From: Blastococcus sp.
GTDB lineage: Bacteria; Actinomycetota; Actinomycetes; Mycobacteriales; Geodermatophilaceae
NCBI GenBank assembly: GCA_042090795.1
Contig: JBELIQ010000013.1
Coordinates: 7,780-71,779, forward strand
Direction: 5' to 3'
Length of the DNA stretch: 64,000 nt
Numbering within the stretch: position 1 is the first letter of the stretch; every line of letters starts with the position of its first letter. Made by a program: the position numbers and the translations under genes. Under the pieces are notes generated by a model. That model was not told where the DNA came from, made no database searches, and saw only the letters and a list, made by a program, of their open reading frames with translations. Of this stretch, positions 1 through 38,456 are shown one piece after another.

Positions 1-14
1 GCAGGCAGGTCCTT

Positions 15-1511
<1,497 letters not shown>

Positions 1512-9766: not shown

Positions 9767-9784
9767 GCGGAGACCCTATAAGCA

Positions 9785-9881
9785 GAAGGACCCCGTCGCC
9801 CCCCACCCCTCGCACGCTCGGGGCGGGCCCCTGCGACGGCGCCGCCCTCGCAGGCTCGGGGCGAGCCTCCGGACGGGGCCG
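9785..9881 (+). repeat. Nested palindromic repeat element: one full copy (9785-9844) plus a partial tandem copy (9845-9881)
   Basis: GAAGGA-CCCCGTCG...CCCC-TCGCACGCTC-GGGG...CGACGGCG-CCG, followed by TCGCAGGCTC-GGGG...GGACGGGG-CCG. Confidence 0.85.
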
Positions 9882-9902
9882 CCGGAGCTGGGAGAGAGGG
9901 AC

Positions 9903-10256
9903 CTAGGGCAGGTCGGGGAGGACGCGCAGGTGCCCGCGCCGCGTGCCGCGGCCGTCGTCCAGAGGATCGCGCGGCGGCTCCGGGCGGGCGGCCTCGCGGA
10001 CCGCGTCGGCCAGGGCGAGCAGGTCGTCACCGGTCGGCCCGACGTCGTCGAGGTCGATCTCGTGCCGGACGACCTCCCAGCCACGGGGAACGGTCAGCCG
10101 CTCGGCGTGGAACTCGCAGAGGTCGTAGCTGTGCGGCTCCGAGAAGGTCGCCAACGGCCCGACAACGGCCATCGACTCCGCGTACACGTAGGTCAGAGTC
10201 GCCGCTGCCGGTTGCGCGCAGCCGCTGCGCGAGCAGCGACGTGACTGCCTCACCAC
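9903..10256 (-). CDS. DUF3499 domain protein (Rv3258c-like)
   Basis: RRCSRSGC...ATLTYVY...EPHSYDLCEFHA. Confidence 0.92.
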   Translation of the reverse strand: MVRQSRRCSRSGCAQPAAATLTYVYAESMAVVGPLATFSEPHSYDLCEFHAERLTVPRGWEVVRHEIDLDDVGPTGDDLLALADAVREAARPEPPRDPLDDGRGTRRGHLRVLPDLP

Positions 10257-10355
10257 CGGTTCCTCACGCCAGGCACACTAAACCCGCCTGCGGGCCCACC
10301 GCAGCAGGCGCACCGGGATTTCGAGGGCGGCCGCCCCATCCTGCACGATGACCCC

Positions 10356-11108
10356 GTGGGCATCGACACAGGTCCGGTCCTCCTCCTGGGCGGGCGCAGC
10401 GAGATCGGCGTGGCCGTCGCCGTCCGGCTCGCAGCACTCGGCTGCGGCACGTTCGTGCTGGCTGCGCGCCGGCCCGACCAGCTCGACGGGCAGGAGGCCG
10501 AACTGCGCCGCGCGGGCGCCACGACCGTCGGCCGGGTCGCCTTCGACGCCGACGACCTGGCAGGTCACCGAGCCGTCCTCGCCGAGGTCGAGGAGCGGTT
10601 CGGCGTCCCGGCGACGGTGGTCGTGGCCTTCGGCGTGCTGGGCGACCAGGCGCTCGCCGAACGCGACCCGGCCGCCGCGGTCGCCGTCGTGCACACCGAC
10701 TACACCGCCCAGGTGCACGTCCTCACCCTGCTGGCCGACCGGCTGCGGGCGGCCGGTCGCGGCACGCTGGTCGTCTTCTCCTCGGTGGCCGGGGTGCGGG
10801 TGCGGCGGGCCAACTACGTGTACGGCTCGGCGAAGGCCGGGCTCGACGGGTTCGCCAGCGGCCTGGCCGACGCGCTGGCCGGTTCCGGCGTGCGGCTGCT
10901 GCTGGTCCGCCCCGGCTTCGTGATCGGCCGGATGACCGAGGGCATGTCGCCGGCACCGTTCTCCAGCACGCCGGACCAGGTGGCCGACGCCGTCGTCGCG
11001 GGGCTGCGGGGACGGCGCGGCGAGGTGTGGGTCCCGGGGGTGCTGCGACCGGTCTTCTTCCTCCTGCGACTGCTCCCCCGCGCCCTCTGGCGGCGGATGC
11101 CCCGGTGA
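10356..11108 (+). CDS. SDR oxidoreductase, DprE2 paralogue (Rv2073c/NCgl1429-like)
   Basis: GGRSEIG, HTDYTAQV, SSVAGVRVRRANYVYGSAKAG, GFVIGRMTEGM, C-terminal WRRMPR. Confidence 0.85.
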   Translation: MGIDTGPVLLLGGRSEIGVAVAVRLAALGCGTFVLAARRPDQLDGQEAELRRAGATTVGRVAFDADDLAGHRAVLAEVEERFGVPATVVVAFGVLGDQALAERDPAAAVAVVHTDYTAQVHVLTLLADRLRAAGRGTLVVFSSVAGVRVRRANYVYGSAKAGLDGFASGLADALAGSGVRLLLVRPGFVIGRMTEGMSPAPFSSTPDQVADAVVAGLRGRRGEVWVPGVLRPVFFLLRLLPRALWRRMPR

Positions 11109-11139
11109 CCGCGTCCGCCGCCGTAGGCTCCGGCTCGTC

Positions 11140-11607
11140 ATGACCGGTCCCTCGCGCCGTCCCGCCCGCTCCCGCCGCGACCGCCACGGCCGGGGCCTGC
11201 GCGGCCGCCTGGTGCCGGCGGAGGTGCCCCTGGCGCGCAGCCGCGCCGAGCAGTTCGACGACCTGGTCCTCGATGCGGTCGAGGAACTCGAGCGCCGGTG
11301 GGAGCGCGAGCTCGCCGGCGTGGAGTTCGCCGTCGAGGACGTGCCGTGGGTGGACCACACCAGCCCCGACGACGTCGTGCTCGACGCCGACGTGCTCGAC
11401 GACGCCAGCGTGCCCCTGGCCCGCGTCCTGCCCGCCCACCGGGAGGACGGCCGCGAGGTGCCGCCGCGGATCATCGTCTACCGGCGGCCGCTCGAGCTGC
11501 GCGCCGGCGACCGGGACGACCTCGCCGACCTGGTGCGCGACGTCGTCGTGGACCAGGTGGCCGTGCTGCTCGGCCGCGACCCCGAGGAGATCGACCCCAC
11601 CGGGTGA
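11140..11607 (+). CDS. Zincin-like metallopeptidase family protein (Rv3259-like)
   Basis: RRDRHGRGLRG, RAEQFDDLV, IIVYRRPLELRA, EEIDP. Confidence 0.88.
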   Translation: MTGPSRRPARSRRDRHGRGLRGRLVPAEVPLARSRAEQFDDLVLDAVEELERRWERELAGVEFAVEDVPWVDHTSPDDVVLDADVLDDASVPLARVLPAHREDGREVPPRIIVYRRPLELRAGDRDDLADLVRDVVVDQVAVLLGRDPEEIDPTG

Positions 11608-11645
11608 GCGTGGCCACACCCCGTGCAACTGCGATGCTGGGTGCG

Positions 11646-12635
11646 ATGGACGTCCCCGCCGCGCCGTGGATCGCGCTCGGCGCGGTGCTGGGGATGCTGC
11701 TCCTCCTCGCGGCCGGCGCAGTCGCGCTCCGGCTCCGCTCGCCGTCGGCGACGACGGCACCGCCGCCGCCGGCAGCACCGTTCCGCGACGACCTCGCCGA
11801 CTTCCTCGCCTCCCCGCCGGGCACCCGGGACCGCCCGGACGACGACCGCGATGACGACCACGCCGACGTCTGGGTCCCGCTCGGCCCGGTACCCGCCGGC
11901 CCCGCCGGTCCCGCCGGCCCCGCCGGGGACCGGCCGGCCACGTCCCCAGCGGCGGGCACCTCCCCCGGCACCGTGCTCGCCGGCCTCGCGGTCGCCACCC
12001 TGCTGCTCGTCGGCGCCGCGGCGGCCCTCGCGGCGTCCGCCCGCACCCCGGAGACGGTGCGCGACGCCACGACCGGGGACGCTCCTGCCGGCACGACCGG
12101 CGCCGCCCCCCTCACCCCGACCGGCGACGACCCGGCAGCCACGTCGGCCCCGCCCCCCGTCCCGGGCGACGTCGCCGCCCGGCTGGCCTTCGGCGGCGTC
12201 GTCCTCGAGGAGCACGCCGTCGGCATCACCGCCGCCTATCCGGAGCTCGAGCTCTCCGTCGACGAGGACGGGCGGGCCGTCGCGCAGCTGCGGCTGCCCA
12301 CCGCGAACTGCCTGGCCACCTCGGCGCCCCCCGCGGCCGGCGATCCGGGCTGCCGGAGCGGGCGCACCGAGTACGCCCAGCTGGCCGGCTCCGACCTGCG
12401 GGTGGTCAGCGACGGCGACCGGCTGTCGGTGTCCGGCCGGTTCCCGACCTACCGGCGTCCCCCGGGAGCGCCGGTGGAGTGGACCGGGCGCAGCTACGAG
12501 CTGTCGGCCACGGTCGAGGGCGCCGGTGAGGAGCGCGCGGGGTGGCTCCCGGTCGAGGGCGAGCTGCGCTGGGAGGACCAGCGCACCACCACGCGGACGG
12601 ACGGCCCGCCGAGCGTCCTGAGCCCGGGGCGCTGA
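11646..12635 (+). CDS. Hypothetical membrane protein (two TM segments, extracytoplasmic C-domain)
   Basis: GC3-biased ORF with two hydrophobic stretches; start 11646 (alternative 11634). Confidence 0.7.
   Translation: MDVPAAPWIALGAVLGMLLLLAAGAVALRLRSPSATTAPPPPAAPFRDDLADFLASPPGTRDRPDDDRDDDHADVWVPLGPVPAGPAGPAGPAGDRPATSPAAGTSPGTVLAGLAVATLLLVGAAAALAASARTPETVRDATTGDAPAGTTGAAPLTPTGDDPAATSAPPPVPGDVAARLAFGGVVLEEHAVGITAAYPELELSVDEDGRAVAQLRLPTANCLATSAPPAAGDPGCRSGRTEYAQLAGSDLRVVSDGDRLSVSGRFPTYRRPPGAPVEWTGRSYELSATVEGAGEERAGWLPVEGELRWEDQRTTTRTDGPPSVLSPGR
11892..11927 (+). repeat. 4 x 9-bp tandem repeat (PAG)4
   Basis: CCCGCCGGN x4. Confidence 0.85.
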
Positions 12636-12732
12636 GCCGGCTCGGGTCCGACGACGACCCGGGTGTGCCTGCCCCGGACAGCACCGCAGCCGCCGACGGG
12701 GACGGTCGGCGGCTGCAGGTGACGTGCTGGAA

Positions 12733-12796
12733 CGGCCCCCCTCCGGAGCCCGGGCCGAGAGTGCGAGGGCTGGGGAGGAGGGGTGCCTCCGTCAGA
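12733..12796 (-). repeat. Nested palindromic repeat element at the whiB2 stop codon
   Basis: TCTGACGGAGGCA-CCCCTCC...TCGCACTCTC...GGAGGGG-GGCCG. Confidence 0.8.
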
Positions 12797-13172
12797 CGGC
12801 GCGGCGGCGGAGCCGGCGGCGCTCCCGCTCGGACAGCCCGCCCCAGATGCCGAAGCGCTCGTCGTTGGAGAGCGCGTACTCGAGGCACTCGGCCTTGACC
12901 TCGCAGCCGGTGCAGATCTTCTTCGCCTCCCGGGTGGAGCCGCCCTTCTCGGGGAAGAACGCCTCCGGGTCCGTCTCGGCACACAGGGCGCGCTCCTGCC
13001 AGGACTGCCCCTCGGCCTCCAGGCCGATGCCCAGCAGCCCGCTGATCCCGGTCCCCGTGGGAGCGCCCAGGCCCTGTCCGGCGCCCAGGCCCTGTCCGGC
13101 GCCCGCGCCGAACCGGTCGGTCGTCCGGTCGCTGCCGCTGACGTAATCGCTCAACCACGAGACCTCGGCCAT
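12792..13172 (-). CDS. whiB: WhiB2-type Fe-S transcription regulator
   Basis: WQERALCAETDPEAFFPEKGGSTREAKKIC..CEVKAECLEYAL...GIWGGLSERERR. Confidence 0.97.
   Translation of the reverse strand: MAEVSWLSDYVSGSDRTTDRFGAGAGQGLGAGQGLGAPTGTGISGLLGIGLEAEGQSWQERALCAETDPEAFFPEKGGSTREAKKICTGCEVKAECLEYALSNDERFGIWGGLSERERRRLRRRAV
13063..13104 (-). repeat. 18-bp tandem repeat in the whiB N-terminus (GAGQGL)
   Basis: GCGCCCAGGCCCTGTCCG x2 plus a 6-bp partial copy. Confidence 0.9.
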
Positions 13173-13260
13173 GACGGTGCGTCCCCTCTCGCTCTCGTCC
13201 CGGTGCGCGGCTGTCGAGACGTTCCCGAACCGCTCAGCACCTGATGACGTCCACGGAATT

Positions 13261-13368
13261 ACACGCGTGTCGTTGCCCGGCCGTCAACTTTGCCCGGTGT
13301 AAGCGACACGCCACACGTGCCCCACCCGTCACGCGCCGTTCGTCACATCTCGTCTGCTACCTCGACAC
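13261..13368. promoter_or_regulatory. whiB/cofD divergent control region with ACACGCGTGT palindrome and GACAC boxes
   Basis: Perfect 10-bp palindrome 13261-13270; GTGTC 13267, GACAC 13305 and 13364 (WhiA-type motif). Confidence 0.5.
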
Positions 13369-13413
13369 GCCCGTGGAACAGTCGACAACTGCCTATCGGG
13401 CACGATGTGTTTC

Positions 13414-14364
13414 GTGCAGATCGTGGTGCTGGCTGGTGGGACCGGAGGGGCTCGATTCCTGAGGGGGGTGCGGGCGGCCGCGCCCGACGCGGAGATCACC
13501 GCGGTGGTGAACACCGGGGACGACGTGACCCTGCACGGGCTGCGCATCTGCCCCGACCTGGACACCGTCGTCTACACCCTGGGCGGCGGCATCGACGAGG
13601 ACCGCGGGTGGGGCCGGGCGGGCGAGAGCTGGACGGTCAAGGAGGAGCTCGCCGCCTACGGCGCGGACCCCGACTGGTTCGGCCTCGGCGACCGCGACCT
13701 GGCCACCCACCTCATCCGCACCCGGATGCTCGACGCCGGCTATCCCCTGTCGGCCGTGACCGCTGCGCTCGCCGACCGGTGGCAGCCCGGCGTCACCGTG
13801 CTGCCGATGAGCGACCAGCGGGTCGAGACCCACGTCGTCGTGACCGATCCGGAGAACGGCCGCCCCCGCGCCATCCACTTCCAGGAGTGGTGGGTGCGGC
13901 ACCGCGCCGAGCTGGCGGCGTCGGCCTTCGTGCAGGTCGGTGTCGACGCCGCGCGCCCCGGCCCGGGGGTGACCGAGGCCTTCGCCGGCGCCGACGCCGT
14001 CCTGTTCGCGCCGTCGAACCCGGTCGTGTCGGTCGGGACGATCCTCGGCGTCCCCGGCATGCGCGAGGCGCTGCTGGCCACGCCGGGGCGCATCGCGGGC
14101 GTCTCGCCGATCGTCGGCGGGGCCGTCGTGCGCGGGATGGCCGACCGCTGCCTGCCGGTGCTGGACATCGAGGTCAGCGCCGAAGGGGTGGGCCGGCACT
14201 ACGGCGCGCGGTCCGACGGCGGGCTGCTCGACGCCTGGCTGGTGGCGGCCGACGACCCCGCCGACGTCCCCGGCGTCGACGTCCGGCGGGTCCCGCTGCT
14301 GATGTCCTCCCCCGAGGCGACGACGGCACTGGCCCGCGCCGCCCTGGACGCCGCCGGTGTCTGA
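13414..14364 (+). CDS. cofD: 2-phospho-L-lactate/PEP transferase (F420 biosynthesis)
   Basis: [42 protein letters not shown]; GTG start 13414. Confidence 0.96.
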
Positions 14365-15487
14365 CGAAGGACCCCGTCCTCCTCACGCCTCGCACGCTCG
14401 CCGCGAGCCTCTGGACGGGGCCGTTCCATCGGGGGTCACGGTGCTGCCCGTCGTGGGGCTGCCGGAGTTCGCGCCGGGCGACGACCTCGCCGCCGCGCTG
14501 GCCGCCCGCGCTCCCTGGCTCGCCGACGGCGACGTCGTCGTCGTCACCTCCAAGGTGGTCTCCAAGGTCGAGGGCGCCCTGGTCCGCGTGGAGCCCGGCG
14601 CCGACCGCGAGGCCGCCCGGCAGGCCGCGATCGACGGGCAGACCGTGCGGGTCGTGGCCCGCCGCGGACCGCTGAAGATCGTGCAGACGCCGCACGGCTG
14701 GGTCGTGGCCGCCGCGGGCATCGACGCGTCCAACGTCGACCAGGGCTCGCTGGTCCTGCTCCCGGAGGACTCCGATGCCTCGGCACGCGCGCTGCGAGCC
14801 CGGCTCGCGGACCTGCTCGGCGTCGACGTCGCCGTGGTGGTCAGCGACACGTTCGGCCGCACCTGGCGGGAGGGGCTGACCGACGTCGCCGTCGGATCGG
14901 CCGGGATCACGGCGCTCGTGGACCACCGGGGTGCCGTCGACGCCCACGGCAACCGGCTGGAGACGACGCGGATCGCCCTGGTGGACGAGCTGGCCTCGGC
15001 CGCCGACCTGGTCAAGGGCAAGCTCGCCGGCGTGCCGGTCGCGGTGATCCGCGGTCTCCCGCCGGCCCGGCCCGAGCCGGACGAGGGCACCCGCCCGCTG
15101 GTCCGGCTGCCCTCGGACGACCTGTTCCCCTACGGCTCCCGGGACGTCGTGGGCTCCCGCTCGCCCGCTGCCGACCTGGTGCCGCGGGCCGGCGAGCTCG
15201 ACGCGGTGGCGGCGGCCCTCCGCACCGCCAGCGCGGCGCTGCCGGAGTTCCCGGTCGTGCTGCGCTTCGGCGGGGAGGGCGACGGGGTCGTCGACGTCCA
15301 CCTGACCGACGCGGTGACCACCACCACCGCGGTCAACCTCGGGGCGCTCGTCGGTGCCGCGATCGTGCAGCTCCACGCGGAGGGCTGGTCCACCCGCTGG
15401 GAGCCGGCCGCCACGGCGGGGGGCACCTCACTCGTCGGGAGGCTGTGGCTGGGCGTCCTGCCCACCGGTAGCGGCTCCGGTCGGTAA
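14357..15487 (+). CDS. cofE: Coenzyme F420-0:L-glutamate ligase with a short, degenerate C-terminal domain
   Basis: [51 protein letters not shown]. Confidence 0.93.
14359..14423 (+). repeat. Nested palindromic repeat element at the cofD stop / cofE N-terminus
   Basis: GTCTGACGAAGGA-CCCCGTCC...TCGCACGCTC...GGACGGGG-CCG. Confidence 0.88.
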
Positions 15488-15498
15488 CGTGCCCGCCC

Positions 15499-16368
15499 AT
15501 GCGCGGGATCATCCTGGCCGGGGGCACGGGGAGCCGGCTCTTCCCCATCACCCAGGCAGTGAGCAAGCAGCTCATGCCGGTCTACGACAAGCCGATGATC
15601 TACTACCCGCTCTCGACGCTGATGATGGCCGGCGTCCGCGAGGTGCTGATCATCACCACCCCCGATGACTCCGACGCGTTCCGCGCGCTGCTGGGCGACG
15701 GCAGCCGGCTGGGCATGCGCATCGAGTACGCGGTCCAGCCGCGGCCCGAGGGGCTGGCGCAGGCGTTCCTGATCGGCGCGGAGTTCCTCGACGGCGAGGC
15801 GGCCGCCCTCGTGCTGGGCGACAACATCTTCTACGGCGCCGGCCTGGGCACCGCCCTGGCCCGGCTGCCCGAGCCCGCCGGCGGCCACGTGTTCGCCTAT
15901 CACGTGGCCAACCCGCAGGAGTACGGCGTCGTGGAGTTCGACACCGCCGGCCGCGTGCTGTCCATCGAGGAGAAGCCGGCGAAGCCCAAGAGCTCCTACG
16001 CCGTCCCGGGGCTGTACTTCTACGCGGGCGACGTCGTCGAGGTGGCCCGCGGCATCCGGCCCAGCGAACGCGGCGAGCTGGAGATCACCGCCGTGAACGA
16101 GCACTACCTGCGGGCGGACCGGCTCACCGTCACCGTCCTGGACCGCGGCACCGCCTGGCTGGACACCGGCACGTTCGCCTCGCTGCGCCAGGCCACGGAG
16201 TTCGTCTCGGTGGTCGAGGAACGGCAGGGCCTCAAGATCGGCTGCATCGAGGAGGTCGCCTGGCGCAACGGCTGGCTGGACGACGACGGCCTGGTGCGCG
16301 CGGCCGGGCCGCTGGGCAAGAGCGGCTACGGCGACTACCTGCTCGGGCTGCTCGCCGAGCGGCACTGA
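15499..16368 (+). CDS. rmlA: Glucose-1-phosphate thymidylyltransferase
   Basis: [33 protein letters not shown]; [10 protein letters not shown]. Confidence 0.98.
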
Positions 16369-16520
16369 CGCCGGCAGCGGGGGTGCGCGCGGCCGACGGG
16401 CGCCCTGCCCCGGAGCCGGATCGCGCCTAGGCTGGGACGTCGAACCGCCCGGCCAGGTCGTTGCCGCCGGCGGTGGCCGCCGGGACGACCGTGCACCCAG
16501 CGCAGGACGGACGAACCACC

Positions 16521-18324: not shown

Positions 18325-18331
18325 GCGGTCC

Positions 18332-19252: not shown

Positions 19253-19367
19253 CGGCGTGCCGGCCGGCGTGGTGGTGCTCAGTGCGCGCTCCGGGGTGCG
19301 AGGTGACGGGTGCTGCCCGCCTCGGGTGCGTCAGCGGGGCACGACGGTACCCGGGATCAGCGGGGGG

Positions 19368-20468: not shown

Positions 20469-20469
20469 G

Positions 20470-21438: not shown

Positions 21439-21580
21439 GCCGAGAACGTAACGGGCGGGGGAATCGGACAGGTGCGACCGCCCGCGCTCCCCCTCGGGAG
21501 AGGGGGTGGTCGTGTATCCATTGGACCGAAGCCGCGGGCCTCCCGGACCCGCTCTCGCACGACGACTCCCGAGGGCGGAG

Positions 21581-23512: not shown

Positions 23513-24754
<1,242 letters not shown>

Positions 24755-24761
24755 CCACCTG

Positions 24762-26669: not shown

Positions 26670-26685
26670 CCGCACGGTCCATCCC

Positions 26686-28379: not shown

Positions 28380-28404
28380 GTGGGAGTTCCTCTCTGCGGG
28401 CGGC

Positions 28405-29238: not shown

Positions 29239-29383
29239 GTTGGTCGAGGCTACCGGCCGCGGCGCGAGCCCCGGCGCACTCGGTGGTACCAGGGGCGGTC
29301 GGGGCTGACGGGTCCGCAGAGGCGCACCGTCCGCCCGGCGGCGGTCACCCGGGACGCACATCCCCCGCGGCTACCCTCGCCGC

Positions 29384-32300
29384 ATGTCCTCGGCCCGGCC
29401 GGCGCAGGGGCGGGCAGCACACCCACGTCTGCCCCTGATCCTGCTCGCGGCGCTCTCCCTGCTGTCCTCCGTCGCGTTCGTCCTCGCGCCGGTGGAGCGC
29501 CCGGAGGCCGTCTACGGCTGGCCGTCGGCCCCGGGCGACGCGACGTCGGTCGCCATCCCGCTGATGCTGGAGCGGCCCGACCTGGTGCGCGCCGAGTGGG
29601 ACTGCGCCGCGGCACGGGCGGCCGACGACGGCACCGTCCTGCTCGCCACCACCGCCCTGGACCCGCCTCCCGGCGACGCCGGGCTCGCCGGGGGGCTGCG
29701 GGTCGCGGTCGAGGGAGGGGACGTGGTCGTCCGCTCCGGGGGCGCCGACCTCGCCGAGCGGTCGATCCCCGGCTCCGGTGACTGCGCCTGGGAGCTCTCC
29801 TCCACCGCCGGGTCCACGACGCTGCGCCTGGACGGCGAGGTCGTGGCCGAGGAATCCGGCGACGTGCGTCCGGCGGTCGCGGGCGTGTTCAGCGACGTCA
29901 CCGACCCGGCCGGGCTGTCGGTCGCGGTCACCGCCGACACGGTCTTCCAGACCTCCCCCACCCCGCTGAAGCAGGCACTGGCGGTGCTGGCCGTGCTCGC
30001 GCTGGCCGCGGCCGCCGTCCTCGTCGTCCGGACGGGGCGGCGCACCGACCCGGCCGGGACGGGCTCGCCGGCTGCTCCCGCCGCCCGCGCGGGCGGCGGC
30101 GTCCTGCGGCTGGGGGTCGACGCGGTCGTCGTCCTGGGCCTGGCGGTGTGGACCGTCATCGGGCCGATGACCGTCGACGACGGCTACATCTCCGGCATCA
30201 TCCGCAGCCGGGACGAGAACGGCTTCGTCGGCAACGTCTACCGCTGGTTCAACGCCCCCGAGGCGCCGTTCGGCTGGCACTACGAGTTGCTGGACCTGTG
30301 GTCGGAGGTCGGCCAGAGCACCCTCTGGTTGCGGGTGCCCTCGTCCCTGCTGGGGATCGCGACCTGGCTGCTGATCTCCCGGGGGCTCCTGCCGCGGCTG
30401 GGGCGCTTCGCGGCGGCCCGGTCGACCTATGCCGTCGCCGCGGCGACCTTCGCGCTGTGGTGGCTGCCCACCAACCTGGGCCTGCGCCCCGAGGCGTGGG
30501 TCGCCGCCGGACTCGCCGCCGTCATGGTCCTGGTCGAGCGCGGGCTGCGGCTCGGCCGGCCCGCACCGCTGCTGCTCGGGCTGGTGGTCGCCGGGGCGAC
30601 GCTCGCGGTGACCCCCACCGGGGCGGTCGCCTTCCTGCCCTTCCTGGCCGCGGCGGTGCCGATCCTCCGGCTCGCCCGCAGCTTGCCCCTCGGGTTGCCG
30701 GCCCTGACCGTCGTGGCCGTGGCGTCGGCCGGGACGGCCCTGCTGCTGGTGTTCGCCGACCAGAGCCTGGCCTCCCTCGGCGAGGCCAACCGCGTCCGCA
30801 GCGCCCTGCCCGGTTCGCTGCCCTGGTCCGACGAGCCCCAGCGCTGGTACCTGCTGCTGTCCAACGAGGACCTGCAGGGCTCCCTGGGCCGGCGGGTGCC
30901 GGTGCTGCTGGCCGTGGTCGCGGCTCTCGGGGTCGTGTGGCACCGGGTCTCGGCGCGCTGGCCCGGCACCGCGGACCGCGACGTCGCCGGACGCCTGGCC
31001 GCCACGTTCGGCCTGTCCCTGCTGGTCCTCCTGGCGACGCCGACGAAGTGGACGATGCACTTCAGCGCGCTGGTCCCGGTCGGGACCGCGCTCGTCGTGG
31101 TGGCGGTGCACCTCTTCGGCCCGGGGCTGCGCGCCGGATCGGCCGGTGGGCGGATCCCCACGGCGGCCCTCGCCCGGACCGCGGTGCCCCTCGCGATCGT
31201 GCTCCTCGTCGGCGCCCAGTCCTGGGCCGGGCTGAACCGGTGGGCCTACCTGTCCGACCTGGGCGTGCCGTGGAACGACACCCCGCCCGAGGTGCTCGGG
31301 CTGAGCATCTCCTCGATGTTCCTGATCCTCGCCCTGCTGGTGAGCGGAGCAGCCGCCGCGACGGTGATCTGGGCCCGGGCCCGCGACGTCGAGGACGTGC
31401 GCGTGCCGCTGGCCCGGTACCTGCCTTCCCCCGGCCTGGTGGCGGTGGCGCTGATCGTGCTCACGGTCGCGCTCCAGCTGGGCAGCTTCGTCCAGGCCAC
31501 CCGCGCGCAGCAGGGCAGCTACTCCCTGGCGTCCGACGCGGCCGCGACCCTCGGTGGTGAACCGTGCGGGCTGGCCGAGGAGCTGCGGGTGGAGCCCGAC
31601 CCGGCCGAGGGGCTGCTCGCCCCGGCGGAGGGCCTCCCCGGGACCGACGGCGAACCGGTGCTCGACGGGTTCGCCGCGGTGCCCGACGGCCGGGTGCCGA
31701 CCGGCCCGGACCTGACGACGGCCGGCGTCGACCTACCCGGCTGGGCAGCCACCGGCCGCACCGCCGAGGACAGCCGCGAACCCGCCCGCCTGGTCACCGG
31801 GTGGTTCGAGGTCCCGGACGCGTTCCTCGCGGAGGACCGCCCGCTCGTCGTGACGACCAGCGGCGACCGGCCGGCGGGCACGAGCGTGGTGGCCGAGTTC
31901 GGCAGCATCGGCGACGGCGGCGTGCAGGTCGTGGACAGCGTCCCGGTGCCCGACATCGATGGCGCCCCCTCCGCCCGCGACGGCCGGGTGGCCCCGGGCG
32001 CGGTGCCGGCGGAGGCCGGGCTGGTCCGGCTGGTCGCCGAGGACGGCGGAGTCGAGGGCGACGTGCCGCTGGCGGTGTCGGTCCCGAGGGTGCCGGTCAC
32101 GGTGCCGTTCCAGGACGTCGTCGATCCCGGCACGCCGGCGCTGGTCGACTGGCCGGTCGCCTTCGTCTTCCCCTGCCAGTCGCCGGCCGTGCAGCAGAAC
32201 GGCCTCACCGACGTCCCGGAGTGGCGGATCTCCCCCGACCCCGCCGACGCCGGGGACATCGTCGTCCAGGAGGAGCTCGGCGGCCCCTACGCACCTGCCC

Positions 32301-32452
32301 GTTCCCTGGTGGACCAGGAGCAGGTGCCGGTGTACCTCCCCGACCGCCCGCTCGAGCGCCCCGTCTCCCTCTACGCCTGGGAACCCCGGACCGAGCTGGC
32401 CGAGCCGGTGCGCCGGATCACCACGGAGACGGTCGCCGGCTGGGCGGGCTGA
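29384..32452 (+). CDS. emb: Emb-family arabinosyltransferase (GT53)
   Basis: TVDDGY, YRWFNAPEAPFGW, NLGLRPE, PTKWTMHF, DWPVAFVFPCQ. Confidence 0.9.
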   Translation: MSSARPAQGRAAHPRLPLILLAALSLLSSVAFVLAPVERPEAVYGWPSAPGDATSVAIPLMLERPDLVRAEWDCAAARAADDGTVLLATTALDPPPGDAGLAGGLRVAVEGGDVVVRSGGADLAERSIPGSGDCAWELSSTAGSTTLRLDGEVVAEESGDVRPAVAGVFSDVTDPAGLSVAVTADTVFQTSPTPLKQALAVLAVLALAAAAVLVVRTGRRTDPAGTGSPAAPAARAGGGVLRLGVDAVVVLGLAVWTVIGPMTVDDGYISGIIRSRDENGFVGNVYRWFNAPEAPFGWHYELLDLWSEVGQSTLWLRVPSSLLGIATWLLISRGLLPRLGRFAAARSTYAVAAATFALWWLPTNLGLRPEAWVAAGLAAVMVLVERGLRLGRPAPLLLGLVVAGATLAVTPTGAVAFLPFLAAAVPILRLARSLPLGLPALTVVAVASAGTALLLVFADQSLASLGEANRVRSALPGSLPWSDEPQRWYLLLSNEDLQGSLGRRVPVLLAVVAALGVVWHRVSARWPGTADRDVAGRLAATFGLSLLVLLATPTKWTMHFSALVPVGTALVVVAVHLFGPGLRAGSAGGRIPTAALARTAVPLAIVLLVGAQSWAGLNRWAYLSDLGVPWNDTPPEVLGLSISSMFLILALLVSGAAAATVIWARARDVEDVRVPLARYLPSPGLVAVALIVLTVALQLGSFVQATRAQQGSYSLASDAAATLGGEPCGLAEELRVEPDPAEGLLAPAEGLPGTDGEPVLDGFAAVPDGRVPTGPDLTTAGVDLPGWAATGRTAEDSREPARLVTGWFEVPDAFLAEDRPLVVTTSGDRPAGTSVVAEFGSIGDGGVQVVDSVPVPDIDGAPSARDGRVAPGAVPAEAGLVRLVAEDGGVEGDVPLAVSVPRVPVTVPFQDVVDPGTPALVDWPVAFVFPCQSPAVQQNGLTDVPEWRISPDPADAGDIVVQEELGGPYAPARSLVDQEQVPVYLPDRPLERPVSLYAWEPRTELAEPVRRITTETVAGWAG

Positions 32453-32627
32453 TCCTCCGACCGTTCCTCCCCGGTGTGACCAGTGCGACCACGGAGGGCT
32501 CCCGTGACGAGGCGGGCGTGGGCGTCCCCGCCGGGCCGGCTCAACCTGTGTCGGACGACCGATCGGTGCGCCCGTCCGATCTAGCATCGCGTGTACCGCC
32601 GAGCAGCCGCCAGCAGTGAGGACCTCC

Positions 32628-34184
32628 GTGAGCCGAGACCGGAACGAGCCCGACGACCGTCACGGTCGTCCGCTCCCGCCGAGCCTCGACCCGCGAGCCG
32701 GCCGCCCGCCGCGCAGGACGACGGACCGGGGCGCCTCCGCCGCCGGGGGCTCCGGCCGGACCGGTGCCGGTGCCCGCCGTGCCGCCATGGGCGCACGCGC
32801 GGTGGCCACCGTGCTGTCGCTGGTGCTGCTGGTCGCCAGCGGCTGGGGGTGGTACCTCGGCCAGGTGGCGGACGCTTCGGTCAACCGCACCGACGCCATC
32901 CCGTCCGACGGCAACGAGGGCGGCGGCGGCTCGGCGATGAACCTCCTGCTGGTCGGCAACGACAGCCGCACGACGCTGTCCGACGAGCTCAAGTCCCAGC
33001 TGCACACCGGTGGCGACCAGGGTTTCAACACCGACACGATGATCCTCGTCCACGTGCCGGCCGACGGGTCCCGGGCCGCGTTCGTCTCCTTCCCGCGCGA
33101 CTCCTACGTGGAGATCCCGGGCTACGGGAAGGACAAGCTCAACGCGGCCTACGCCTACGGCCGGCAGAACGCCCCGGACGACGCCCCGGAGGAGGAGAAG
33201 TCGGGGCAGGGCGCGCAACTGCTGGTGCAGACCATCAGCGGCCTCACCGGCCTGAAGATCGACCACTACGCCGAGATCGACCTGCTCGGCTTCTTCAACC
33301 TCACCGAGGTCGTGGGCGGGGTCGAGGTCAACCTGTGCGCGCCCGTCGACGACCGCAGGTACTCCGGGGCCGTCTTCCCGGCCGGGCCCCAGGTCATCTC
33401 CGGCGCCGACGCCGTCAAGTTCGTGCGCCAGCGCCACGGGCTGCCCCGGGTCGACCTCGACCGCATCGTCCGCCAGCAGGTCTTCATCGGCGGTGTGCTC
33501 CGCAAGATGCTGTCCGAGGACGTGATGCTGGACCTGGGCCGGCAGCGCGAGCTCGCCGAGGCCGCCTCCAAGGCGCTCACCGTCGACCGGAACCTCGAGC
33601 TGCTCGATCTCGCCCAGCAGATGCAGACGGTCACCGCCGGCAGCATCAAGTTCCAGACCATCCCGATCGTGACCCCCGACGGGCGTGACGAGCAGGGCCG
33701 CTCGATCGTCCAGCTCGAGGACGAGGAGACCCTGCACGCCTTCTTCGCCGACCTCTCGGCGGAGCCGGCGAAGCCCGCGACGACCCCCGCCCCGACCAGC
33801 GAGGCGCCCCCCACGGCGGCGCCGTCGGAGGTCACCGTGGAGGTCTTCAACGGCTCGGGCACCTCCGGCCTCGCGGGCACCGCGGCCGATGCGCTCACCG
33901 AGGCCGGGTACGTCGTCGGCAGCACCGGCAACGCGGACTCGATGGACTACACCCGGACCGAGATCCGCTACGCCACCGCCAGCAAGGCGCAGGCGACGAC
34001 GCTGGCCACCGCGGTCCCGGGCGCGAAGCTCACCGCCGACGAGGACGTGCCGGCCGGCACGACCCACCTGGTGATCGGCTCGGACTTCAACGGCATCGGG
34101 CAGGCGGTGACCCAGCAGCCCGCCCCCGAGAAGACCGAGGGCGCCCCTGCCCGCACCGCCGCCGACTCCTCCTGCATCAACTGA
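32628..34184 (+). CDS. LCP (LytR-CpsA-Psr) glycopolymer-peptidoglycan ligase with LytR_C domain
   Basis: LLVGNDSR, TDTMILVH, SFPRDSYV, KLNAAY, FVRQRH...D.DRIVRQQ; C-terminal VEVFNGSG. Confidence 0.93.
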   Translation: MSRDRNEPDDRHGRPLPPSLDPRAGRPPRRTTDRGASAAGGSGRTGAGARRAAMGARAVATVLSLVLLVASGWGWYLGQVADASVNRTDAIPSDGNEGGGGSAMNLLLVGNDSRTTLSDELKSQLHTGGDQGFNTDTMILVHVPADGSRAAFVSFPRDSYVEIPGYGKDKLNAAYAYGRQNAPDDAPEEEKSGQGAQLLVQTISGLTGLKIDHYAEIDLLGFFNLTEVVGGVEVNLCAPVDDRRYSGAVFPAGPQVISGADAVKFVRQRHGLPRVDLDRIVRQQVFIGGVLRKMLSEDVMLDLGRQRELAEAASKALTVDRNLELLDLAQQMQTVTAGSIKFQTIPIVTPDGRDEQGRSIVQLEDEETLHAFFADLSAEPAKPATTPAPTSEAPPTAAPSEVTVEVFNGSGTSGLAGTAADALTEAGYVVGSTGNADSMDYTRTEIRYATASKAQATTLATAVPGAKLTADEDVPAGTTHLVIGSDFNGIGQAVTQQPAPEKTEGAPARTAADSSCIN

Positions 34185-34231
34185 CGGCGACGCGTCGCCG
34201 CCCGGTTCCCGGCTGTTAACCTCGGCGGACC

Positions 34232-35899
34232 TTGTCCGGCGTCGATGGTCCCGGTGCTCGTGCGCGGCGCCCAGCCCACAGAGGAGACGCGCCCCTGCTG
34301 TCCCACCTGGTCCTGGACGACGACGGCCTCTCCTTCGACGCCTCGCCCGAGGACGACGACCGCGTGCTCGACCTGCTGCTCGCCGGACGGCGGATCTGGT
34401 CGTTCCGCGTCTCGGCGACCGAGCCCGGTACGTCGGGTGAGCCGCACCGCCGCCGGCTGCCGTGGCCGCGGCCGCTGCGGCCGTACCTGACCGGCACCGG
34501 CACGATCGGCCTGCGCCCCATCGACGGCGGCTCGGACGTGCTGACCGCCGCCGCGCGGTTCGGCGACGGCGACCGGCCGCTCCGGTTCGACGACCGCCAC
34601 GGCATCGGGCTGGTCATCAACAAGTTCGGGCGCATCGGCCATGCGCTGGCCGACTACGACCCCGGCATGGTGCCGCGGCTGCTGGACAACCTCGACCGCG
34701 TCCGGGCGGCGCTCGCCGAGCACCGGCCCGACCTGCCCGTCTACGTCATGAGCGGCACCCTGCTCGGCCCCTACCGGGACGGCCGGATCATGCCGCACGA
34801 CGACGACGCCGACCTCGGCTACCTGAGCGCGCACAGCCACCCCGCCGACGTGGTCCGCGAGGCCTTCCAGCTGGGCCGGATCCTGCGCGCCGCCGGGCTG
34901 GACGCCATCCGCGCCTCGGCCGGCCACGTGCAGGTCCACTTCAGCCACGAGGGCCGGCCCGATGCCTACGTCGACCTCTTCACGGGGTTCATCGACGAGC
35001 AGGGCTGGTGGCAGCACACCTTCGCGATCCGGCTGCAGGCGCGCCGCGACCAGGTCGTCCCCACGATCACCGTCGACGTGGAGGGCCGCCCCGAGCCCGC
35101 GCCCCGGGAGCCGGAGCTCATGCTCGAGGCCAACTACGGCCCGGGGTGGAAGGTGCCCGACCCCTCCTACCGGTTCGACATCCCCCGCTCCGTCCAGGAC
35201 CGGTTCTGGGGCTGGTTCTCCGACTACGGCATGGACCGCACCATGTGGGAGGACTTCTACCGCTACGACATCGAGGGCGCCCGCGTGCCGCTGGGCAGCA
35301 CGCCGTCGGGCTACGCCCGCTGGCTGGCCGGCCGGATCCCCCCGGGCAGCCGGGTGCTGGAGCTCGGCACCGGACGGGGTCACGACGCGCTGTGGCTGGC
35401 CGCGCAGGGGTTCGACGTCGAGGCGCTGGACTACGTGCGCTGGCCCGTGCGCGCGGCCACCGAGGCCGCCGAGGAGCAGGGCTCGACGGCCCGTTTCCGG
35501 GTGCTCAACCTCTACGACCTGCGCCGGGTGATCACCCTCGGCGCCGAGCTGGCCGCCCGCCGGGAGCCGCTGGTCGTCTACGGCCGGGGGCTGCTCGGCA
35601 ACTACTGGGACATCGGGCGGCCCATCCTGCTGCGCGGGCTGTCGATGCTGCTGCGCAGCGGCGGGCAGGCGCACCTGGACGTGCCCCGCACCAGCCTGCT
35701 CCCCCAGCCGGGCACCGGCGTCCCGATGCACCGGGCGGTGCCGGTGGACACGCTGCGCGCGGAGCTGGCCCCCTACGGGCTGCGGATCGACGAGGTGCAC
35801 GACGCCGACGAGGTGGACGGGCACACGCCCTGGGAGACGGGCACCGACCCGCTCCCGACGACGAGGATGGTGGTGACATGGCAGCGACCGGTGCGGTGA
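34232..35899 (+). CDS. LicD-like nucleotidyltransferase-fold domain fused to a class I SAM methyltransferase
   Basis: SGTLLGPYRDGRIMPHDDDADLGY (LicD-type GTLLG...DDD.D); VLELGTGRGHDA...EALDY (motif I). Confidence 0.78.
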   Translation: MSGVDGPGARARRPAHRGDAPLLSHLVLDDDGLSFDASPEDDDRVLDLLLAGRRIWSFRVSATEPGTSGEPHRRRLPWPRPLRPYLTGTGTIGLRPIDGGSDVLTAAARFGDGDRPLRFDDRHGIGLVINKFGRIGHALADYDPGMVPRLLDNLDRVRAALAEHRPDLPVYVMSGTLLGPYRDGRIMPHDDDADLGYLSAHSHPADVVREAFQLGRILRAAGLDAIRASAGHVQVHFSHEGRPDAYVDLFTGFIDEQGWWQHTFAIRLQARRDQVVPTITVDVEGRPEPAPREPELMLEANYGPGWKVPDPSYRFDIPRSVQDRFWGWFSDYGMDRTMWEDFYRYDIEGARVPLGSTPSGYARWLAGRIPPGSRVLELGTGRGHDALWLAAQGFDVEALDYVRWPVRAATEAAEEQGSTARFRVLNLYDLRRVITLGAELAARREPLVVYGRGLLGNYWDIGRPILLRGLSMLLRSGGQAHLDVPRTSLLPQPGTGVPMHRAVPVDTLRAELAPYGLRIDEVHDADEVDGHTPWETGTDPLPTTRMVVTWQRPVR

Positions 35900-36243
35900 A
35901 GCGGCTGGTGCGGGCCCCGGCGAAGGCGTTCCGGAAGGCCCTCTTCCCGGACTACGAGGCAGTGCTCCGCGACATCCGGCTGGCCTTCGACTCCCTCAAG
36001 GCCGCGCACCGCGGCATCGCCGACCTGCAGGTGGAGAACGCCGCGCTGCGGTCCCGCCTGGACGAGGCGTACGGACGCCTGGACGAGGCGCTGCCGCGAC
36101 TGGCCGAGGGCCTGCTCGAGGAGCGCCGGCTCAACCTGCGCATCGCCGAGCTGACCGACCTGGTGACCGAGGTCGTGCTGCCGCTGCACGACCGGGACAT
36201 CGACCCCGGGCAGCTGCAGAGGCTGGCTCCGGACACCCTCTGA
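35896..36243 (+). CDS. Small coiled-coil protein (DUF6752-like), coupled to the upstream gene
   Basis: GTGA overlap; heptad pattern ending EERRLNLRIAELTDLVTEVVLP. Confidence 0.75.
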   Translation: MKRLVRAPAKAFRKALFPDYEAVLRDIRLAFDSLKAAHRGIADLQVENAALRSRLDEAYGRLDEALPRLAEGLLEERRLNLRIAELTDLVTEVVLPLHDRDIDPGQLQRLAPDTL

Positions 36244-36262
36244 GACGTCCGCACCCGCGGCC

Positions 36263-36287
36263 ACCCCCGTCCGCCGGGGACGGGGGT
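36263..36287. terminator. Hairpin between convergent genes
   Basis: ACCCCCGTCC-GCCGG-GGACGGGGGT, perfect 10-bp stem. Confidence 0.75.
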
Positions 36288-36291
36288 CGGC

Positions 36292-37047
36292 TCAGAAGGG
36301 CAGCCGGCGGAACACCGCGCGCGGCGTGTGGCGCAGGCCGCTCATCACCCAGCGCATCGCGCCGGGGACCCACACGGTGTGCCGGCCCTTGCGGACGCCG
36401 GTGACGATCGCCTCGGCCACGGCCTCCGGCGTCGTGGACAGCGGCGCCTCGGCCATGCCCTCGGTCATCTTCGACCGCACGAAACCGGGCCGGACGACCA
36501 GCACCGACACCCCGGTGCCCACGAGGGAGTCGGCCAGGCCCGAGTAGAACGCGTCCACACCGGCCTTGGTGGAGCCGTAGACGTAGTTGGACCGCCGGGC
36601 CCGCTCCCCGGCCACGGACGACAGCACGACGATCGCCCCGTGGCCCTGGCTGCGCATCCGGTTGGCCAGGGCCGTGCCGACGACCACCGGGGCCACGTAG
36701 TTCACCTGCCCGAGCGCACCGGCCGCACCGGGGTCGGCGGCGAGCTGCTCCTGGTCGCCGAGCTGACCGAAGGCGACCACCGCGACGTCGATGTCCGCAC
36801 CGGCCGCGGCGGCGGCGACCATGCGCTCGGGCGAACCCGGGTCGTCGGCGTCGAAGTCGACGACGTCGACGTCGGCACCGGCGGCTCGGAGCTCGTCGGC
36901 CACGGCGGCCCGGCGCGGGGAGTTCCGCGCCGCGACGACGACGCGCAGCGGCCGCTCGGCCAGGTAGCGGCGGGCGGTGGCCACGGCGATGTCGGAGGTT
37001 CCGCCGACGAGCAGCAGCGAGCTCGGGGATCCGAGGGCGTCGATCAC
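36292..37047 (-). CDS. dprE2: Decaprenylphospho-2-keto-erythropentose reductase
   Basis: IDALGSPSSLLLVGGTSDI, AFGQLGD, RRSNYVYGSTKAG; directly downstream of dprE1. Confidence 0.93.
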   Translation of the reverse strand: MIDALGSPSSLLLVGGTSDIAVATARRYLAERPLRVVVAARNSPRRAAVADELRAAGADVDVVDFDADDPGSPERMVAAAAAGADIDVAVVAFGQLGDQEQLAADPGAAGALGQVNYVAPVVVGTALANRMRSQGHGAIVVLSSVAGERARRSNYVYGSTKAGVDAFYSGLADSLVGTGVSVLVVRPGFVRSKMTEGMAEAPLSTTPEAVAEAIVTGVRKGRHTVWVPGAMRWVMSGLRHTPRAVFRRLPF

Positions 37048-38456
37048 AGCGAGAGCCTCCTGGCCAGGTCGGACGTGAACACACCGTCGGGGTCCACCCG
37101 CTCGCGGACCGCGCGGAACTCCTCGAGCCGCGGGTACATCCGCGCGAAGGTCTCCGGGCGGACCCGGGAGTCCTTGGCCAGGTAGGTCCGTCCCTCGGCG
37201 GCGACGACGACCTCGTCCAGGGAGTCGAGCAGACCGGCCAGCCCCTTCATCACGGGGATGTCCAGCGCCAGCGTCCACCCCGGCGACGGGTAGGACAGCA
37301 TGCCGGGGTTGCCGGGGCCGAAGCGCTTGAGCACGGCGAGGAAGGACGCCGTCCCGAACGAGCTGAGCCGGTCCAGCACCTCGCGCATGGCCTCCTCCTG
37401 CCCGAAGGGCACGGTGACCTGGTACTGCACGAAGCCGCGCGGGCCGTAGATGCGGTTCCAGCCGCCCACGGCGTCGAGCGGGTGGAAGAAGGTCGGGATG
37501 CTCTGCAGCTGGTCGCGCTTCTTCTTGGGCGACTTGCGGTACCAGAGCTCGTTGAACGCCGCGACCGTGGCCAGGTTCAGCAGCCCGGGCGGGAAGACGT
37601 CGGGGACCGACACCTTGATCGAGCCGTGGTAGGCCAGCGGGTCGGCCTTCCGCTTCTCCGGCAGCTCGTCGAGCGTGGCGAAGCGGCCGCGGGTGACCAC
37701 CGAGCGGCCCATGCGCCGCCCCTTGGCCAGCGTGTCGATCCAGGCGACCGAGTACTCGTAGAGGTGGTCGGTCTCGGCCAGCAGCGTCATGAGCGAGTCG
37801 AGGTCGGGCGTGCGGTCGGTGTCGACCAGGCAGCGCGAGGACTCGATCCGCTTCAGCTGCACCTGCGCGCGCAGGATCACCCCGGTCAGGCCCATGCCGC
37901 CGGCGGTGGCCCAGAAGAGGTCCGGGTCCTGCTCGGGGCTGACCCGCCGCACCTCGCCGTCGGCGGTGAGCAGGTCCAGCCACCGGACGTGCTGGGCGAA
38001 GCTGCCCGCGACGTGGTGGTTCTTGCCGTGGATGTCCGCCCCGATGGCCCCCCCGACGGTCACCAGGCGGGTGCCCGGCGTCACGGGCACGAAGAAGCCC
38101 TGCGGGACGAAGCGGTTCATCAGCTCGTCCAGCGAGATGCCGGCCTCGACGTCGACCAGACCGGTCTCCGGGTCGAAGGACAGCACGCGGGCGGCCGCGG
38201 TCATGTCCAGCACGTGGCCACCGGCGTTCTGCGCCGCGTCGCCGTAGCTGCGGGCCAGACCGCGGGCCACCACACCACGACCGCCGGCGGCGGCGAGCAC
38301 CGCACGCACCTCGGCGTCGTCGTGGACGGGGGTGAGCACCGCCGGCGTCGGCGCGGTGCGGCCCCAGCCGTGGAGAGCCACGGCTTCGCCGGCCCCGTCC
38401 AGGGGCCCGCGCCGAGCCTGCGAGGCGTGGGGGGGACGGGGTGTTTCGTCAGACAT
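37044..38456 (-). CDS. dprE1: Decaprenylphosphoryl-ribose 2'-oxidase (FAD)
   Basis: GWGRTAP, RGLARSYGDAAQN, PVTPGTR.VTVGGAIGADIHGKNHH, SFLAVLKRFG, YLAKDSR. Confidence 0.95.
   Translation of the reverse strand: MSDETPRPPHASQARRGPLDGAGEAVALHGWGRTAPTPAVLTPVHDDAEVRAVLAAAGGRGVVARGLARSYGDAAQNAGGHVLDMTAAARVLSFDPETGLVDVEAGISLDELMNRFVPQGFFVPVTPGTRLVTVGGAIGADIHGKNHHVAGSFAQHVRWLDLLTADGEVRRVSPEQDPDLFWATAGGMGLTGVILRAQVQLKRIESSRCLVDTDRTPDLDSLMTLLAETDHLYEYSVAWIDTLAKGRRMGRSVVTRGRFATLDELPEKRKADPLAYHGSIKVSVPDVFPPGLLNLATVAAFNELWYRKSPKKKRDQLQSIPTFFHPLDAVGGWNRIYGPRGFVQYQVTVPFGQEEAMREVLDRLSSFGTASFLAVLKRFGPGNPGMLSYPSPGWTLALDIPVMKGLAGLLDSLDEVVVAAEGRTYLAKDSRVRPETFARMYPRLEEFRAVRERVDPDGVFTSDLARRLSL
38390..38453 (-). 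repeat. Nested palindromic repeat element at the ubiA stop / dprE1 N-terminus
   Basis: GTCTGACGAAACA-CCCCGTCC...CGCC-TCGCAGGCTC-GGCG...GGACGGGG-CCG. Confidence 0.88.

Follow-up and report, generated by a model that had tools for sequence, protein, structure and literature searches.

In Mycobacterium, the hairpin repeat known as TRIT ('Tuberculosis Rho-independent terminator') is present in 147 copies that are conserved in sequence and structure, occupy a very narrow position relative to stop codons and belong to one lineage (Gardner et al. 2011, PMC3152330); one proposal is that RNase III processes it (PMC13714241). Start codons are where MIRUs insert, each bringing along a coupled open reading frame (ORF) of its own (PMC12548453). 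Among the extragenic palindromes called REPs, those tagged with CGTC have no dedicated transposase (PMC3733652), a precedent for the repeat described here, and surveys of REPs list no Actinobacteria (PMC2817692, PMC3733652). We found no description in the literature of repeats in Geodermatophilaceae. Here we analyse a hairpin repeat from this family of bacteria, starting from a 64,000-nt stretch of a Blastococcus sp. genome (contig JBELIQ010000013.1; hereafter, the window). An earlier note, made from the letters of this stretch, had grouped four loci into one nested-palindrome family located at stop codons; the four do align together as one family, and their positions are unchanged (Table 1). 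With moderate confidence, we read the repeat as a non-autonomous element that inserts by stop-like triplets and is then tolerated, or used as an mRNA hairpin.

Architecture and placement of the repeat

Written in the direction of the upstream gene, the repeat is a unit of 60–75 bp that follows the stop codon after a spacer of 0–3 nt and begins with a purine-rich head, RAAGGAC. The head is followed by the 5′ arm of an outer stem of 8–10 bp (CCCC-N2-4-SC), the short strand of a 2×5 internal loop (CC or TC) and the 5′ arm of an inner stem of 8 bp with one conserved A·C mismatch (C[C/T]C-A-CSSC). Between the two inner arms lies a 10-nt loop, TCGCAsGCTC (the decaloop), and the 3′ half then runs through the inner 3′ arm, the long strand of the internal loop (CCCCT or CCTCT), the outer 3′ arm and CCG. 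About a quarter of the copies carry a 3′ tail, TTCCAGCACGTCAC, which pairs with TGACGAAGGAC and extends the palindromic rod. The borders are sharp, since information content falls to background 4 nt upstream and ~11 nt downstream. CGTC or GACG is present in only a subset of heads and tails. Most copies are singletons or head-to-tail pairs; the family also includes subfamilies with differing stems, occasional dimers, clusters and intragenic copies.

The compensatory stem changes that the earlier note had seen in a handful of copies were borne out on 110 distinct genomic copies. Stem positions are paired in 92.3% of cells, as compared with 75.5% in shuffles and 43–52% with slid partners. Both sides have changed in 260 stem cells versus 86 in shuffles, with double changes in 12 of the 15 stem pairs, and RNAalifold independently gives the same outer and inner helices. 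The loop, described earlier as invariant, is nearly so: 8 of its 10 positions are conserved in at least 109 of the 110 copies. Its core, CTCGCANNCTCG, occurs five times in the window against an expectation of 0.59, a number reached in none of 100 shuffles.

The host genome is a 4.6-Mb, 73% G+C, 99.7%-complete draft, and its CofD protein has its best match in B. goldschmidtiae (95% identity). The earlier note had made its claim depend on further copies elsewhere in the genome; an iterated nhmmer profile found 192 copies at E<1e-3, rising to 230 hits when the threshold was E<10, and we put the copy number at about 190–215, with a few copies counted twice owing to assembly redundancy (contigs C13:243633-294573 and C41:14-50954, 50.9 kb, 100% identical). 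By approximate count, 176 of the 192 copies are intergenic, with the upstream gene on the same strand for 140 and on the opposite strand for 36. As many as 103 of these 176 start within −6 to +10 of a same-strand stop, as compared with ~1.5% expected for random intergenic insertion in random orientation; in the modal placement (48 copies), the A of TGA is position 1 of the repeat model. By spacer type, 62% of copies lie between tandem genes, 34% between convergent genes and 4% between divergent genes (only seven copies), whereas the corresponding figures for all spacers are 60%, 20% and 20%.

Proximity to a stop codon is not the only regularity in placement. Where a copy faces an opposite-strand start, its head abuts a reverse −10 hexamer (ANNNTA) in 11 of 17 cases, against a background of 0.17%, and in 10 of these 11 TAG is the triplet beside the head. 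Both arrangements occur in the spacer between the DUF3499 gene and manB: in some genomes the element follows the DUF3499 stop in gene orientation, whereas in others, including the window, it is inverted, with its head against the conserved TA(TA)GGGT of manB. This −10-like hexamer is abutted by repeat copies in several genera. Given that a T-R-R triplet adjoins the head both where it functions as a stop and where it does not, we infer an insertion-site preference rather than selection for stop proximity; the variable register of the triplet keeps this at the level of inference.

Distribution and turnover at orthologous sites

Using a covariance model of the repeat (R1; a count of 133 means at least 133 copies), we detected the repeat in 30 of 41 Geodermatophilaceae genomes and in 11 of the 15 sampled genera. 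All 24 other sampled Blastococcus genomes carry it, with 2 to at least 133 copies, and within a single genus four genomes held at least 133, at least 133, 0 and at least 133. There was no R1 match in 16 genomes from other families of the order. Within the genomes sampled, the repeat is confined to Geodermatophilaceae.

We compared orthologous sites at 55 Geodermatophilaceae loci around cofD. Sites fixed across distant genera would have told against a mobile repeat; instead, filled, empty and remnant alleles were all found, along with copies of other subfamilies, shifted copies and arrays, and the closest relative has a copy of a different stem subfamily at the orthologous site. In filled/empty pairs (L033/L037, L029/L009, L011/L048, L036/L023, and the window versus L003), the insertion lies directly 3′ of the stop triplet, and the clean pairs contain no target-site duplication of the kind that defines MITEs. 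In L001 and L012 the copy is displaced by a few bases and the element is read as the C-terminus of FbiA. L031 has an extra, inverted copy. Between fbiA and fbiB of Geodermatophilus sp. DF01-2 (L041:6960-7266), six units with two alternating stem subtypes form a tandem array with a period of ~99 nt that is in frame with fbiB, a locus resembling a variable-number tandem repeat (VNTR).

Decay products are present at the same sites in the form of head-only footprints, mini-hairpins and half elements. L017 retains only a footprint of the head, GAAGGACCCC; L038 retains the head and left arm; and in L005, L007 and L008 the outer stem alone survives as a mini-hairpin. New copies adjoin old head remnants. 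Copies at one site in different genera resemble each other no more than unrelated copies do (0.75 versus 0.74), as could be seen either with turnover or if the variable positions were saturated. Two Modestobacter loci (L044:1216-1276 and L043:1222-1282) have a copy in apparent coding sequence. Four loci scored as empty at the Modestobacter site (L051, L052, L026 and L035) keep a 13-nt stretch, GGCCCTGCAGG, that resembles the right arm of the element; it is either a deletion derivative or a chance match.

Proposed insertion beside stop-like triplets and its alternatives

We propose that the repeat is a Geodermatophilaceae-specific family of non-autonomous nested-palindrome elements, with mobility, target rule, RNA role and loop-binding factor all putative, unlike the structure, placement, orientation bias, distribution and allelic states observed above. 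New copies would enter the DNA head-first, directly 3′ of a stop-like triplet (TGA, TAG or TAA), without target duplication. At 73% G+C, most such triplets would be genuine stops or fall on the TA of −10 boxes. Insertions would survive at gene 3′ ends, at operon junctions and beside promoters, and would be purged from coding sequence unless in frame. Transcription of the upstream gene would extend through fixed copies and yield a long bulged hairpin that is not a canonical terminator in the gene direction. By analogy with what has been proposed for REP and TRIT, this hairpin would most likely serve as a 3′-end or intercistronic stability or processing site, with the invariant loop as the recognition site of a trans-acting factor. 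Copies would decay by internal palindrome deletions.

Some of the observations in this paragraph and the next three weigh against the proposal. The gene calls come from a crude GC3-based caller (3,794 calls, 83% coding), such that placement counts are approximate. The stop lies 3, 4, 6 or 7 nt ahead of AGGAC, a looser register than a sequence-specific target would suggest, and TGG is also common beside the head in copies that do not abut a stop. Mean pairwise identity among copies is 73% and nearest-neighbour identity is 91%; with only 15 pairs at ≥96%, the copies are old and no recent burst is visible. In low-copy genomes the whiB site holds remnants, indicating that at least part of the copy-number variation is loss; much of it could be.

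The element folds better on the complementary strand than on the mRNA-sense strand. The complementary-strand hairpin is the more stable in 147 of 159 copies (−35.1 versus −29.6 kcal/mol). A·C mismatches, which are G·U on the other strand, outnumber G·U by 69 to 31, and the conserved A·C position alternates with G-C and A-T, as a G·U pair would. A U/C-rich run after the hairpin (UCCUUCU) is present on the complementary strand only. Since the complementary strand both folds better and carries this run, a function of the sense RNA fits poorly. The preference could mean that the element acts against antisense or convergent transcription, that single-stranded DNA is the relevant strand, or that the operon orientation is simply the non-terminating one. 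Local GC skew gave no information on a link to the replication strand. A split ribosome-binding site of the T4 gene 38 type, in which the Shine–Dalgarno-like head is bridged to the downstream start by the hairpin, was rejected, as element-to-start distances are broad, with no peak.

The earlier note had likened the repeat to REP/MITE elements and had suggested mobilisation by RAYT/TnpA-type enzymes. The resemblance stands insofar as the repeat is dispersed, high-copy, palindromic, mostly intergenic and variable in copy number among relatives; the suggested driver does not. PF01797 (Y1_Tnp, including RAYTs) was absent from the host genome in a six-frame search and from all 41 Geodermatophilaceae genomes, although positive controls were hit, and 30 of these 41 genomes nonetheless carry the repeat. 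As far as these searches reach, a RAYT/IS200 driver is ruled out. TnpB (PF07282) is present in only 2 of the 41 genomes and is unrelated to copy number, and TnpB-only IS605 relatives were rejected as drivers.

No transposase was found among the ORFs between inverted copies in the host genome; these ORFs are housekeeping genes (purU-like, msrA, quinone oxidoreductase, pyrE-like and glgC-like). Self-BLAST of the assembly revealed no multi-copy repeat the size of an insertion sequence (IS), although a draft with contigs of ≥8 kb could hide a collapsed IS. The genome contains no split or IS-interrupted repeat copies, and insertion of an IS110/IS1111-type element into the repeat was accordingly rejected; no plasmid-borne copies were found. 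With no multi-copy IS and no split copies, there was likewise no sign of a parental autonomous IS with matching terminal repeats, subject to the same limit of the draft. In its behaviour, the repeat resembles IS200/IS605-derived (PATE-like) elements and single-strand 'peel and paste' HUH elements in general: insertion is oriented and 3′ of a short motif, there is no duplication, and one strand folds better. Non-Y1/HUH machinery might read the decaloop and place the element head-first by stop-type triplets, and, as the loop motif recurs in a co-resident MIRU-like family that targets start codons (F2, described below), a single system in Mycobacteriales-type actinobacteria may write both gene boundaries, with TRIT and MIRU as the mycobacterial counterparts; we consider this scheme quite unlikely.

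Among the alternatives to a non-autonomous, possibly functional element, we regard as somewhat unlikely the view that the repeat is nothing but a selfish or fossil DNA palindrome, without a role in RNA or for the host, its stems kept by quasi-palindrome correction (intrastrand template switching in replication) and its placement reflecting harmless sites. The range of 0 to at least 133 copies among congeners indicates that the element is dispensable. Decay products are frequent, copy B (Table 1) lies upstream of a native terminator that already serves whiB, and the mismatch spectrum does not favour the mRNA-sense strand; the similarity of same-site copies, no greater than that of unrelated ones, is also consistent with this view. 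The compensatory changes are real, yet DNA-level palindrome correction could yield them as well as selection on RNA could. However, self-correction leaves the remaining conserved features unexplained. Loops are untemplated, and the invariance of the 10-nt loop over ~200 diverged copies and across genera thus goes beyond palindrome correction; moreover, the internal loop and the A·C mismatch are conserved features that correction to a perfect palindrome would have removed. An oriented target or selection is needed, in turn, to account for the 140:36 orientation bias.

The repeats might instead be host-evolved, TRIT-like terminators, possibly bidirectional, in which the effective strand is complementary to the upstream gene and presents the hairpin followed by UCCUUCU. 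In favour of this view, copies are concentrated at gene 3′ ends and between convergent genes (34% of copies versus 20% of spacers) and depleted in divergent spacers, and the complementary strand folds better and has a pyrimidine/U-rich tail; 29 copies between tandem genes are co-directional in the complementary orientation, directly before the next promoter or ribosome-binding site. However, 78 copies between tandem genes are in the non-terminating orientation, many of them within operons, and the UCCUUCU tract is weak. In the gene direction, there is no U-tract 3′ of the hairpin: downstream positions are low in information, with T in 32% of copies at +1 and in 25% at +2. Given that lack, the copies inside the fbiA-fbiB and ubiA-dprE1 junctions and the copy upstream of the native whiB terminator, we conclude that the element is not a canonical terminator of the preceding gene. 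Congeners with 0–2 copies do without the element, and in Mycobacterium TRITs overlap few mapped termination sites (bioRxiv 10.1101/2022.06.01.494293). On balance, a terminator origin is unlikely.

A DNA-level role, as a protein-binding or recombination site acting on the extruded hairpin or on the duplex CTCGCAsGCTCG, comparable to BIME–gyrase/IHF or to attC-like single-strand sites, appears very unlikely to us. The unrelated MIRU-like family has the same 12-mer, in the same two variants, on the other strand with respect to transcription; this favours strand-independent and hence DNA recognition. One strand of the repeat also folds better, as attC bottom strands do. Nonetheless, attC core sites (RYYYAAC/GTTRRRY) were not seen on inspection, the flanking genes are core and syntenic rather than cassettes, covarying stems would not be needed for duplex recognition, and no candidate protein was identified.

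Some copies lie within an open frame and may be translated. At fbiA/fbiB junctions without the element, the fbiA stop and the fbiB start overlap (GTGTCTGA). The 17 alleles of this junction that are filled or hold a remnant are all open and in register, from the start overlapping the fbiA stop through 49–430 nt of element sequence to the conserved LPVxGLPEF, as against a chance of 1/3 per independent event; they include arrays of 289 and 430 nt that are stop-free. Genome-wide, 6 host genes read through a stop-abutting copy, 5 of them in the same frame. Since these are just 6 of 88 stop-abutting copies, the remainder being non-coding, translation is not the purpose of the element; it results from insertion at a junction where genes overlap, on which selection then acts as a filter. 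That the repeat is a coding module adding a Pro/Gly/Arg-rich peptide to protein N-termini is hardly credible, given also that the peptide varies with stem subfamily and array length (19 to >140 residues), that empty alleles of the same genes are common, and that frame-keeping is expected from purifying selection on any insertion into an essential N-terminus.

Copies in the window, a second repeat family and known systems

The stop codons that the earlier note had assigned to three of the copies are indeed the TGAs of WhiB, CofD/FbiA and a UbiA-family ORF. Gene identities were established by Pfam, and the neighbouring genes also include those for the F420 ligase CofE/FbiB, a DprE1-like FAD oxidase, DUF3499 and phosphomannomutase; the flanking genes are core genes in conserved synteny.

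Table 1 Repeat copies and associated features in the window (positions are those of the window)
Feature	Position	Strand	Description
Copy A	9785..9881	+	Composite: head GAAGGAC and a single outer stem (CCCCGTCG ... GGACGGGG) around two inner hairpins
Copy A, inner hairpins	9784-9835 and 9845-9880		Each with loop TCGCAsGCTC
Copy B with 3′ tail	12720..12796	-	TGA is the whiB stop, 12792-12794
Copy B, core	12733-12790	-	CGGAGGCACCCC...GGGGGGCCG, then tail TTCCAGCACGTCA at 12720-12732
whiB native terminator-like hairpin	12687..12716	-	CAGCCGCCGAC-N5-GTCGGCGGCTG; context, outside the repeat
Copy C	14359..14430	+	After cofD/fbiA TGA, 14362-14364; core 14366-14423; short tail TTCCATC
Copy D	38390..38453	-	After the UbiA-family ORF stop, 38449-38451
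Further full copy, 5′ part only	1..16	-	Contig C6:7736-7795; cut by the window edge

Copy A lies in the spacer bounded by the DUF3499 stop (9903) and the manB/pmm start (9766), antisense to both genes, and its head adjoins the manB −10-like hexamer TATAGGGT on the minus strand. In most relatives, the conserved −10-like TA(TA)GGGT of the phosphomannomutase gene (8402-9766, minus strand) lies only ~6–8 nt before the GTG (window 9767-9785), and this position suggests a leaderless or near-leaderless transcript. Copy B lies between the whiB stop and the native whiB terminator-like hairpin, which is conserved both in those Blastococcus and Geodermatophilus relatives that have the repeat insertion and in those that do not; a T-containing run follows this hairpin. 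Copy C falls within the first 25 codons of cofE/fbiB and is read in frame, the GTG (14357) overlapping the fbiA stop. Similarly, copy D falls within the first codons of the DprE1-like FAD oxidase gene, in frame, with its ATG (38454-38456) overlapping the UbiA-family stop. The UbiA-family ORF that ends at copy D (38449-41067, minus strand) is open for 872 codons, of which only residues 605-835 form the UbiA domain. Its true start is probably far downstream; alternatively, the ORF is a fusion or an overlap.

A second dispersed repeat, F2, is ~88 nt long (CGTGAGCGAGCsTGCGAGC...GACGAGCGCCAGCGAGGAGnnCnCGTGAGC) and has at least 20 copies in the host genome. The window holds a weak copy at 60280-60363 on the plus strand; the best copies are at C10:66464-66550, C32:48354-48438 and C27:78976-79059. 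Across Geodermatophilaceae F2 has 0–71 copies per genome, with copies in 33 of the 41 genomes, and forms 77-nt tandem arrays in two of them (G074 and G067). A 26-codon ORF (V[ST]E[LR]A[SR]..TSASEE..) is found in 14–15 of 20 copies, and its TGA overlaps the RTG start of the downstream gene. The downstream genes are unrelated to one another (rapZ-like, trpC, hiuH-like and others), an arrangement of the MIRU type (PMC12548453). F2 has no Rfam match. It shares the 12-mer CTCGCAsGCTCG/CTCGCGAGCTCG with the loop of the hairpin family, on the opposite strand relative to transcription. Copy numbers of the two families do not track each other and thus give no sign of a shared factor.

With ~200 copies per genome across dozens of genomes, and with counts from 0 to >133, the hairpin family is a large and clean natural data set. 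It bears on how REP- and TRIT-type hairpin repeats spread without a RAYT, and on the role of such hairpins at mRNA 3′ ends in high-GC actinobacteria without canonical terminators. A trans-acting factor should be findable by virtue of the stop-like-triplet rule, the unvarying loop and the availability of sister species that have or lack the family. Annotation is affected in that N-terminal extensions, spurious or real, arise from the element (FbiB, DprE1), which also flags operon junctions. TRIT, whose function remains debated, gains a non-pathogenic system for comparison.

Several known systems can be set aside. On inspection, the consensus contains no R″/R′ core sites of integron attC, and the context is that of core genes; IntI was not searched for. 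A resemblance to CRISPR repeats was likewise rejected on inspection. The window has no Rfam match at the gathering threshold, and at E≤5 over 9700-14500 there were two chance-level hits away from the copies. Like an intrinsic terminator, the repeat is a GC-rich hairpin at gene 3′ ends; unlike one, it has no U-tract in the gene direction, has a sequence common across loci, occurs inside operons and is dispensable in congeners.

Rickettsia palindromic elements (RPEs; Ogata et al., 2000) are said to be palindromic repeats that can lie in frame inside coding genes and be translated. In the repeat described here, in-frame copies are a minority (6/88) found only where a start overlaps the upstream stop, and there is no sequence similarity to RPEs, which have been cited as CGTC REPs (PMC3733652). 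MIRUs resemble the repeat in their location at operon gene boundaries, in keeping reading frames and in forming tandem VNTR-like arrays (for the repeat, the six units of L041). However, the hairpin repeat has no internal start codon, and the description of MIRUs fits F2 instead.

REPs and BIMEs are closer. Like the repeat, they are extragenic palindromes of high copy number that lie between co-directional and convergent genes and are under-represented between divergent ones, with stem subfamilies, dimers, clusters and occasional intragenic copies. Liang, Rudd and Deutscher reportedly found in 2015 that about half of E. coli REPs lie ≤15 nt from a stop codon. The repeat differs in that its genomes lack Y1/RAYT genes (0/41) and in that its 60–75 bp unit has an internal loop and a decaloop, whereas REPs are 20–40 bp. 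It bears neither GTAG nor CGTC as a fixed tag: beyond −4, the 5′ flank is at background information, and the register of the triplet is variable. It occurs mostly as singletons or head-to-tail pairs and not as head-to-head dimers. We conclude that the element resembles REPs in form and distribution without being a REP/RAYT system, since enzyme, tag and size all fail to agree.

The closest analogue is the TRIT of Mycobacterium, which we compared by its published description. Both repeats amount to ~150–200 copies per genome and are palindromic, two-sided hairpins conserved in sequence and structure. Both occupy a narrow position at annotated stops, lack a canonical U-tract, are lineage-restricted within Mycobacteriales (in the GTDB sense) and have no known transposase. 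Nonetheless, TRIT has been reported only in Mycobacterium and is centred at approximately −8, inside the coding sequence, whereas the repeat begins just after the stop and has a nested two-helix architecture with an invariant 10-nt loop. We conclude that the repeat stands alongside the REP and TRIT repeats as a new counterpart specific to its own lineage.

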